From a virus (taxonomy: Duplodnaviria > Heunggongvirae > Uroviricota > Caudoviricetes): DNA of 40,480 nt. Below are positions 23,991-24,300 of the stretch, piece by piece. The position numbers and the translations under genes were made by a program. The notes under the pieces are model-generated. The model did not search any database, was not told the DNA's origin, and saw only the letters and a program-made list of their open reading frames with translations. The stretch is taken from IMG/VR virus record IMGVR_UViG_2718218098_000005, positions 1-40,480 of that record; one strand, written 5' to 3'. Position 1 is the first letter of the stretch; each line of letters begins with the position of its first letter.

Positions 23991-24065
23991 TGGAGCGGGT
24001 AGCGGGAATCGAACCCGCATCATCAGCTTGGAAGGCTGAGGTAATAGCCATTATACGATACCCGC
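23991..24065 (-). tRNA. tRNA-Gly (anticodon TCC)
   Basis: Clean cloverleaf, anticodon loop CTTCCAA, T-loop TTCGATT, 3' CCA encoded; near-identical to E. coli glyT by recollection with compensatory acceptor change. Confidence 0.8.
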
Positions 24066-24068
24066 ATA

Positions 24069-24144
24069 TGGTGCCGACTACCGGAATCGAACTGGTGACC
24101 TGATGATTACAAGTCAGTTGTTCTACCTACTGAGCTAAGTCGGC
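24069..24144 (-). tRNA. tRNA-like, probable anticodon TGT (Thr), non-canonical anticodon stem
   Basis: Acceptor GCCGACT/AGTCGGC, T-loop TTCGATT, CCA encoded; anticodon loop CTTGTAA but only 3 Watson-Crick pairs in anticodon stem. Confidence 0.5.
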
Positions 24145-24146
24145 AC

Positions 24147-24223
24147 TGGACCGCCACCGGGGACTCGAACCTCGCACACTCAACTTAAAGTGTTGACGCT
24201 CTTTCCTGATGAACTAGTAGCGG
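24147..24223 (-). tRNA. tRNA-like, probable anticodon TTT (Lys) with C33
   Basis: Acceptor CCGCTAC/GTGGCGG, 5-bp anticodon stem TCAAC/GTTGA, loop ACTTTAA, T-loop TTCGAGT, CCA encoded. Confidence 0.5.
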
Positions 24224-24224
24224 T

Positions 24225-24300
24225 TGGTGGCCCTGGCTGGATTTGAACCAGCGACCTGGCGATTATGAGTCGCTCGCTCTCACCACTGAGCTAAAGGGCC
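24225..24300 (-). tRNA. tRNA-Ile2-like (anticodon CAT; ileX/ileZ type)
   Basis: Strong similarity by recollection to E. coli ileX; anticodon loop CTCATAA; CCA encoded. Confidence 0.8.

Follow-up and report, generated by a model that had tools for sequence, protein, structure and literature searches.

A tRNA cassette in the late region of a lambdoid Escherichia coli prophage may combine a nuclease-resistant tRNA-Thr(UGU) with a remodelled argN-family gene

We analyzed a stretch of viral DNA of 40,480 nucleotides (nt), the IMG/VR record IMGVR_UViG_2718218098_000005 (hereafter 'the window'), and focused on a small island of transfer RNA (tRNA) genes in its late region. The window matches the chromosome of Escherichia coli M19, a mouse isolate, at 100% identity and spans a near-entire lambdoid prophage from the tail fibres to the integrase. 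ARAGORN found exactly four tRNA genes in it, all of them on the minus strand: a tRNA-Ile2 of the ileZ/ileX type with the anticodon CAU (24225..24300; called Met/Ile2(cat) by the program), a tRNA-like gene of the argN family with the anticodon UUU (24147..24223, referred to as slot 2 in the following), a tRNA-Thr(UGU) (24069..24144) and a tRNA-Gly(UCC) (23991..24065). The spacers between the genes measure 1, 2 and 3 nt and a CCA end is encoded in each of the four. A previous reading of the window that was made from its letters alone (the sequence-only reading) had described such an island between the Q gene and the lysis genes, and ARAGORN and the Rfam family RF00005 agree with this description of the genes, as does the annotation of strain M19 with their placement. 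Our best reading is that the island is a tRNA cassette of the lambdoid late region in the form that it takes in E. coli prophages, situated between pR'/tR' and the lysis genes.

The four genes were also evaluated with Infernal and RF00005 (gathering score 29 bits). The boundaries were the same as those given by ARAGORN, and the genes for Gly, Ile2 and Thr reached 65.6, 64.7 and 54.8 bits, respectively. Slot 2, called Lys(ttt) by ARAGORN, scored 33.3 bits (E=3.6e-5), which is narrowly above the gathering score and was reported with permissive filters only. Instead of canonical folds with other boundaries, both programs returned the non-canonical features that had been noticed before, namely a tRNA-Thr with three Watson–Crick pairs in the anticodon stem and a TTT gene with C33 in the loop ACUUUAA. 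The anticodon stem contains 4-5 pairs in slot 2, Ile2 and Gly compared to 3 in Thr, while Ile2, Thr and Gly have 7-nt loops in which position 33 is U and position 37 a purine, a pattern from which slot 2 departs at C33. In two points the earlier description was slightly too favourable: the acceptor and T arms of the two middle genes are good except that slot 2 has the mismatch A51.C63 in its T stem, and one of the two genes regarded as clean, tRNA-Ile2, carries a private A66C substitution that results in a U7.C66 mismatch (64.7 bits, versus 72.5 bits for the common allele). The tRNAscan-based RefSeq annotation of the M19 island contains the tRNA-Ile and tRNA-Gly genes and omits slot 2 and Thr. 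In other E. coli strains all four genes are annotated, slot 2 as a tRNA-Lys. Besides, all prophage Ile2 alleles that we observed have a mismatch at 27-43 (A.C, or U.C in arrays with the short-loop form of slot 2 described below), where host ileX presumably has a G.U pair; this mismatch may be another case of a shortened stem or may be meaningless.

The upstream edge of the island is formed by the gene of the late antiterminator Q (24511..25200, minus strand), which is supported by the RefSeq annotation of the identical M19 locus and by its open reading frame (ORF). At the end of the Q gene a consensus scan gave a match to a pR'-like sigma-70 promoter (TTGCAA-17-TATATT, 24499..24527, minus strand), placed in the same way as the annotated pR' of phage 21. 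A tR'-like hairpin (AAAACCCGC-CCACAA-GCGGGUUUU, then a U-rich tail; 24424..24447, minus strand) was read from the sequence, with partial Rfam terminator-type matches at 24417-24450, and by analogy to phage 21 it would be the terminator that Q overrides. The tRNAs start ~120 nt downstream of this hairpin. A second match to the sigma-70 consensus (TTGCTA-17-TATTAT, 24309..24337, minus strand) is located 8 nt before the first tRNA and lies within a stretch that is 88% identical to the region upstream of ileZ in Stx phages; it is possible that this is the cassette's own promoter. On the other side, between the island and the holin and ~360 nt downstream of the former, a consensus match indicates a terminator-like hairpin with a T run (23608..23627, minus strand). 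The downstream edge and the start of the lysis cassette is the first holin gene (22841..23233, minus strand), accompanied by a second holin gene (22576-22851) and an endolysin gene (22196-22573), all three taken from the RefSeq annotation of the M19 locus.

By scanning IMG/VR and applying ARAGORN, we observed that considerably more than 100 viral contigs carry the array Ile2, slot 2, Thr, Gly. Among 5,426 complete genomes of E. coli, 601 have it as well, at a coverage of at least 80%. A comparison with ileZ-argN-argO of the Stx phages had been proposed by the sequence-only reading and proved to be apt: Ile2 is homologous to ileZ and slot 2 to argN, and Thr and Gly are copies of host thrU and glyT. 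In Stx phages of the 933W type these three genes occupy the same site, between Q/pR' and the late genes, and their ileZ-argN region shows 88% identity to the window over 218-254 nt, from the promoter through Ile2 and slot 2. The ileZ gene is nearly the same gene as Ile2 of the window. Likewise, argN aligns with slot 2 over the full length and shares A51.C63 and U73 with it, whereas the loop is canonical in argN (CUUCGAA, anticodon UCG) and ACUUUAA in slot 2, and pair 30-40 shows a compensatory difference (G-C in argN, A-U in slot 2). The third gene of the Stx phages, the tRNA-Arg(UCU) argO, was not found in the window by ARAGORN, which reports Thr(UGU)-Gly(UCC) instead. The layout of Q/pR'-tR', tRNAs and lysis or toxin genes also occurs in Stx2a_F349, PhiR47_1 and phage 21. 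In phage 21, pR' and a terminator are followed by the tRNAs for Asn (GUU) and Thr (UGU), which stand immediately after the annotated tR' (L276:39591-39746), and then by the holin; the anticodons GUU and UGU are both among the published targets of the PARIS nuclease AriB. Judged by its annotation in many genomes and its homology to ileZ-argN, the cassette is a known kind of element. Our literature search on ileZ/argN/argO and on prophage-encoded tRNAs returned nothing on this particular cassette.

The phage Thr and Gly genes match the host operon thrU-tyrU-glyT-thrT. In direct alignments no difference was seen between thrU and the most common prophage Thr allele, nor between glyT and the most common Gly allele. 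The host operon has tyrU between the two genes, whereas the phage genes are only 3 nt apart and lack tyrU. Compared to the host copies, the Thr gene of the window carries G24A, G42U and U43C, and the Gly gene carries a compensatory change of C6-G67 to U6-A67. We also recognized thrU-type bodies with other anticodons: a single change at position 35 gives UCU (Arg) in phage SerU-LTIIb (L003:1122-1197) and UUU (Lys) in the third gene of a Met-Lys-Lys-Gly array (L184). The slots of the cassette seem to interconvert among UNU anticodons, which read ACA, AAA and AGA. Downstream of the cassette, matches to the small RNA (sRNA) family STnc100 of Rfam were observed in a Stx phage (L002:4217-4428, 158.5 bits) and at a locus with a short-loop slot 2 (L257:6686-6878, 71.7 bits); the window contains no match to this family.

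The tRNA-Thr gene has the UGU anticodon followed by A37. In its anticodon stem A27.C43 and C28.U42 are mismatched and the pairs U29-A41, G30-C40 and A31-U39 remain, and the D stem contains a C11.A24 mismatch. An allele found at another locus (L275) differs from host thrU by G42U and U43C only, and the window gene adds G24A. A targeted scan identified the arm UCAUC in 11 IMG/VR contigs and a version UCACC in two more. The altered arm occurs on at least seven full-length sequence backgrounds and in six array types, and of the 5,426 complete genomes of E. coli 14 contain UCAUC, some in as many as three copies. The genes with this arm are annotated as tRNA-Thr except in the mouse strains M6, M9, M11, M15 and M19, which also have G24A. 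No contig with position 42 or 43 changed singly was observed in the IMG/VR scans, and ~240 phage Thr copies contained no other change in the anticodon stem except A27G, which keeps a G.U pair. The Rfam scores are 73.8 bits for the thrU type, 63.6 (the allele with G24) or 59.5 bits for UCAUC and 54.8 bits for the window gene. On the evidence of these sequences, the three-pair stem is a minority allele that is common to several lineages and makes up ~2-3% of the prophage copies, with G24A being private to the lineage of the window. A distant search of phage genomes with the window's Thr gene as query added nothing useful to this picture.

The anticodon arm of the host tRNA is the target of a known anti-phage nuclease. 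The Old nuclease of phage P2 aborts the infection by phage lambda, and its primary target is the host tRNA-ThrU, which is cleaved 3' of C28 and C40 in the paired CNG motifs C28-U29-G30 and C40-A41-G42, so that the anticodon arm is removed (Govande et al., PMC12445682). An altered CNG motif and a shorter stem are jointly required for resistance, each of them being ineffective alone (PMC12445682). Phage tRNA-Thr(UGU) genes rescue cells from Old, the tRNA-Thr21 of phage 21 being protective, while over-expression of thrU does not (PMC12445682). In a further, independent preprint Thr(UGU) and Gly(UCC) were the tRNAs most depleted by Old, and the lambdoid phage HK446 was found to encode an Old-resistant Thr(UGU) (bioRxiv 10.64898/2026.07.10.737580). 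In the window gene, G42U turns C40-A41-G42 into CAU and unpairs 28-42, and U43C unpairs 27-43. One CNG motif is thus altered and the anticodon stem is shortened, and as both published requirements are present we infer that the Thr allele is a nuclease-resistant spare; from its sequence, an evasion of nucleases is the probable meaning of this allele.

The known Old-resistant tRNA-Thr(UGU) genes (tRNA-Thr6, Thr21 and those of HK446, T4 and Bas32) share the anticodon with the window gene as well as the combination of an altered CNG motif and a shortened stem, and tRNA-Thr21, like the window gene, is also encoded by a lambdoid phage directly behind tR'. However, the window gene is not a sequence relative of Thr21 but host thrU with two changes, which indicates an independent origin. 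It also loses two pairs (27-43 and 28-42) where the known resistant tRNAs lose one, and its 5' CUG motif is intact. A resistance to AriB of the PARIS system is possible as well, though less clear. The prime targets of AriB are tRNA-Lys(UUU) and tRNA-Thr(UGU); it cuts at U36AAUC/A41 (the slash marks the cut), and U39A in tRNA-Lys abolishes the cleavage (Belukhina et al., PMC12409363). HepS of Gifsy-1 cleaves Thr(UGU) as a secondary target (PMC13043305). Within the literature that we searched, the link between the Thr allele and nucleases of the Old/PARIS type is new, and it is mechanistically specific.

Several observations weigh against this interpretation of the Thr gene. About 97% of the prophage Thr copies keep the thrU arm, which by the published data neither resists Old nor rescues the cell. 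The old gene of P2 is scarce in E. coli (17 of 5,426 genomes), and none of the 10 genomes listed out of these 17 belongs to the 14 genomes with the variant Thr arm. With respect to AriB, the Thr gene retains the cleavage site UAAUC/A. Moreover, the double change at positions 42 and 43 may stem from one event, e.g. a micro-conversion from the adjoining Ile2 gene followed by drift, as is suggested by the UCACC version of the arm, which equals the corresponding stretch of Ile2 (UCGCCAGGUC). Finally, a stem of 3 bp combined with C11.A24 may harm the folding or the function on the ribosome, and a competing hairpin is predicted to be stronger with U43C (-25.4 kcal/mol, versus -22.8 kcal/mol for thrU). 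In the energy prediction U43C adds a G35-C43 pair to this alternative 7-bp hairpin (29-35 with 43-49), which buries the anticodon. From the energy folding of single tRNAs in general no conclusion can be drawn, since the minimum-energy fold of host thrU is not a cloverleaf either.

Slot 2 shows a different picture. Its loop A32-C33-U34-U35-U36-A37-A38 is closed by a 5-bp stem, A51.C63 is found in the T stem, the discriminator is U73 and A20 is kept; C5U, C11U and C32A are private changes of the window gene. C33 is present in every copy of this subtype, and in ~110 copies the loop varies at position 32 only (C or U; A in the window). Among elongator tRNAs U33 is almost invariant (PMC5041475), but C33 is compatible with decoding in the yeast tRNA-Leu(GAG) (PMC13492127), which has C33 in an otherwise normal 7-nt loop just as slot 2 does. 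This is a eukaryotic precedent with genetically shown function; a bacterial or phage precedent of a C33 elongator was not found in the literature searched. With regard to a Lys decoder, slot 2 has a complete cloverleaf, a CCA end and the U36-A37-A38 required for t6A37. The identity elements of lysyl-tRNA synthetase are U34-U35-U36 and A73, and slot 2 has the anticodon elements and U73 instead of A73. It reads U36-A-A-G39-U40-U41 and consequently lacks the sequence by which AriB recognizes and cleaves host tRNA-Lys.

A similar case is known from phage T5, whose PARIS-evading tRNAs are Lys(UUU), Thr(UGU) and Asn(GUU) (PMC11464382, PMC12409363). The anticodons of the two odd genes of the window are those of the two prime targets of AriB, and the protective changes of the T5 tRNA-Lys are located at positions 39 and 41, while around the cleavage site the differences between slot 2 and host tRNA-Lys are at 39, 40 and 41. 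In contrast to the T5 gene, slot 2 is not a relative of tRNA-Lys but has a tRNA-Arg body, with C33 and U73. T5 is furthermore a virulent phage with a large tRNA set, unlike the prophage studied here, whose Thr gene keeps the AriB site. One or both of the odd genes may be nuclease-proof spares. For slot 2 in particular, we hold only tentatively that it is a decoding, nuclease-insensitive Lys(UUU) tRNA, and about as tentatively that its fold alone is used, as a processing unit or as a decoy. Against a Lys decoder speak the combination of C33, U73 and A51.C63 with a score of 33 bits, other alleles with U8C (17 copies) or with a deletion in the D stem (15 copies, in the PPompW prophages of O157), and a sister lineage with loops of 5-6 nt that are unable to decode although the body is conserved. 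In addition, AAA is not a rare codon, and a need for codon supply would not call for a Lys tRNA. A reading of slot 2 as a suppressor with a shifted register (anticodon UUA) was rejected because the shifted stem is unpaired. As a side observation, argN of Stx2a_F349 (L002:2643-2719) and slot 2 of O157 PPompW (L004:2664-2739) have a G3.U70 pair in the acceptor stem (CCGCCA./GUGGUGG). This pair is the major identity element of alanyl-tRNA synthetase, and these 'Arg/Lys' genes might be charged with alanine; slot 2 of the window has G3-C70.

In order to describe the argN family we parsed the structure of 43 distinct members manually and counted the pairs on this parse. At least 95% of the distinct sequences keep the pairing at 20 of the 21 helical pairs, and compensatory variation was observed at 3-70 (G-C, G.U, A-U), 27-43 (U-A, G.U, A-U), 30-40 (A-U, G-C) and 51-63 (A-U, A.C, G-C). 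Judged by these patterns the fold of the family is under selection. The loops fall into three classes: canonical Arg loops (CUUCUAA; CUUCGAA in argN), the form N32-C33-UUU-A-A, which is the commonest in E. coli prophages, and short loops of 5-6 nt. Members of the last class have the pattern (C)NNN-R-U in at least 15 versions and end with CCA (L257:7253-7326, L265, L259, L274:3220-3293 and ~55 other loci). The canonical Arg form scores 56.4 bits in Rfam, argN and the common C33 form 43-44 bits and the window gene 33.3 bits, and the short-loop members go undetected; neither RefSeq nor Rfam makes a call on them. They occur in five of the 5,426 E. coli genomes and were absent from the deposited phage genomes. 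In species-representative genomes nine loci were obtained, with a scan pattern that left the short-loop forms out.

For a sampling that is independent of slot 2 itself, we collected arrays in which the 3' end of Ile and the 5' start of Thr are 60-90 nt apart. All 108 arrays obtained in this way hold a member of the argN family. In 71 of them it is a canonical Arg(UCU) with an invariant loop on at least three diverged bodies, which vary with compensation. The remaining 37 carry the short-loop form with the opposite pattern, 13 different loops of 5-6 nt on a nearly invariant body, and one identical scaffold of 68 nt bears seven different loops. In the loop triplet the diversity per column (~0.6-0.7) is as high as in the unalignable flanks, compared to ~0 in most columns of the body. 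The short loops are as variable as unconstrained sequence and not demonstrably faster, the flanks used for this comparison being mosaic and largely unalignable, and the 5' 22 nt were fixed by the search pattern in part of the short-loop sample. This inverse conservation is the least expected result of our analysis. As the body is nearly invariant and the loop highly variable, decoding is not what maintains the short-loop branch. Slot 2 could belong to a widespread prophage family of non-decoding tRNA mimics, distinct from both tRNAs and pseudogenes, in which the body with its CCA end and A20 is nearly fixed and the triplet, in a C33 loop or a truncated loop of 5-6 nt, is free or driven to change, the loop then being a specificity element or an escape surface of a nuclease decoy or inhibitor, or of a kissing-loop regulator; from the sequences we consider this rather improbable.

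More generally, slot 2 may be tRNA-shaped without decoding any more, as an RNase P 'punctuation' or as a non-cleavable decoy of enzymes binding to tRNA bodies, with UUU being devoid of coding meaning. Among the alternatives we rank this one highest, and it is possible but doubtful. As the genes are only 1-3 nt apart, slot 2 has to be excised to free the Ile2 3' end and the Thr 5' end. However, arrays without slot 2 exist, in which Ile2 is directly followed by Thr, and slot 2 is therefore not indispensable for processing. The short-loop arrays, the scaffold with its seven loops and the triplet diversity at the level of the flanks are what a role of the fold alone would lead one to expect, as is the conservation of the pairs, and all 6-nt loops open with a C before the variable triplet, like C33 of the window. 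The window subtype, on the other hand, has a full 7-nt loop with U36-A37-A38 that varies at position 32 only, as in a decoder, and the sampling of the short-loop branch was in part set by the search pattern in its 5' 22 nt. A non-canonical slot 2 often stands beside a separate canonical Arg(UCU), as observed in Stx phages, PPompW and L274, which fits with a non-decoding function; for a decoy, no target is known.

Taken together, we prefer the explanation that the island is a lambdoid late-region cassette which combines a nuclease-resistant Thr spare with a remodelled argN-family gene, and on the basis of sequence and analogy we give it a probability of about one half. Transcription of the cassette would start at a sigma-70-type promoter of its own and also reach it by read-through under Q antitermination, and RNase P together with 3' trimming would cut the transcript into four RNAs with CCA ends. 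Three of them, Ile2(CAU), Thr(UGU) and Gly(UCC), are near-copies of host tRNAs and would read the A-ending codons AUA, ACA and GGA, and the Thr spare with G42U and U43C would sustain the decoding of ACA while Old destroys the host ThrU. Slot 2 would be an argN-family tRNA-Arg encoded by the phage, with a loop remodelled to C33-UUU, and it would serve as a spare Lys(UUU) decoder or, equally, as a non-decoding tRNA-shaped RNA that is retained for its fold. The private weakening substitutions in three genes of this lineage would reflect some relaxed selection on top. These proposed roles are inferred by comparing sequences and by analogy to experiments on other tRNAs.

The sequence-only reading had offered divergent functional tRNAs, decoys and decaying copies as an uncommitted list, and the evidence separates these options gene by gene. 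A plain decay would mean that the cassette serves codon supply or is a hitch-hiker and that the odd features are neutral or slightly harmful steps of genes becoming pseudogenes, which we regard as unlikely for the cassette as a whole. Private substitutions are found in three of the four genes (A66C in Ile2; C5U, C11U and C32A in slot 2; G24A in Thr), each of these genes scores ~8-10 Rfam bits below its nearest common allele, and the exact alleles of the window occur only in five related mouse isolates of one series. These substitutions, the lost bits and the restriction to one clone point to some relaxation of selection there, and to this extent the idea of decaying copies may hold. It does not fit the changes at 42/43, which form a recurrent allele, or C33, which is subtype-wide. 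The changes in the Thr anticodon stem are not private but present on at least seven otherwise intact backgrounds, G42U and U43C always occur together and never singly, and they hit two of ~8 positions relevant for Old, as would be the case for ~1% of random substitution pairs in a rough calculation of our own. Similarly, C33 is found in every copy of its subtype, and compensation at 3-70, 27-43, 30-40 and 51-63 preserves the stems across the slot-2 family. A point for decay that also weighs against the preferred explanation is that RefSeq omits both odd genes in the five strains with exactly these alleles, and low-frequency disruptive variants were observed in all four slots of E. coli prophages (Thr A9G and A9C; slot 2 U8C and the D-stem deletion). 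The prophage itself looks otherwise intact: with 60 ORFs and just one frameshift and one partial gene it is unlike an old remnant.

Codon supply alone would explain the cassette by more tRNA for A-ending codons, with the altered arms being irrelevant to nucleases. The codons ATA, ACA, GGA, AGA, AGG and AAA are used 7.3, 14.0, 13.1, 5.5, 5.9 and 36.7 times per 1000 codons in the phage. Compared to the E. coli K-12 averages, AUA, ACA and GGA are ~1.6-2 times higher, and AGA and AGG are above average as well. This explanation is the classical one for ileZ-argN-argO and suits the enriched codons and the commonest Thr and Gly alleles, which as exact copies of thrU and glyT can add dosage only, but it is the least likely of the explanations of the cassette because AAA is not rare, the array has no Arg(UCU) though AGA and AGG are most enriched, dosage leaves the paired change at 42/43 unexplained, and in published screens phage tRNAs with matching anticodons suppress nuclease toxicity. 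The dosage of Ile2, Thr and Gly is plausible as a parallel benefit next to the preferred function as spares.

Some further features of the prophage were observed outside the island. A hok/sok type I toxin–antitoxin locus is present (hokD coding sequence 27389-27544; sok antisense RNA 27542-27691, Rfam 107.3 bits). The sRNA DicF (36007-36058, Rfam 76.7 bits) is followed by dicB and ydfD, up to 36609, and these form a division-inhibition module of the Qin type within the early region, the prophage being complete otherwise. An HNH endonuclease gene (20498-20848) is located directly upstream of the small terminase gene. The only annotated pseudogenes are a frameshifted small ORF (26617-26841) and a partial ead/Ea22 gene (29775-30197).

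If the odd genes are inert, the lesson is that annotation pipelines are inconsistent, as the same genes appear as tRNA-Lys and tRNA-Thr in some strains and receive no call in others. Work of the years 2024-2026 has shown that Toprim/HEPN nucleases (P2 Old, PARIS AriB, HepS and PrrC) halt phages through the destruction of a small number of host tRNAs, chiefly Thr(UGU) and Lys(UUU), and that virulent phages counter them with resistant tRNA copies. If our explanation is true, temperate lambdoid prophages would escape alike and with minimal means, i.e. with an exact copy of thrU and two adjacent base changes. The Thr allele would then be a natural experiment which predicts that two positions are sufficient for escape. 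It would also explain the tRNA cassettes in the late operons of lambdoid phages, which have been credited to the supply of rare codons ever since the sequencing of the Stx phages. The argN family raises a separate question, namely what purpose is served by a tRNA body that is conserved while its anticodon loop is unconstrained.

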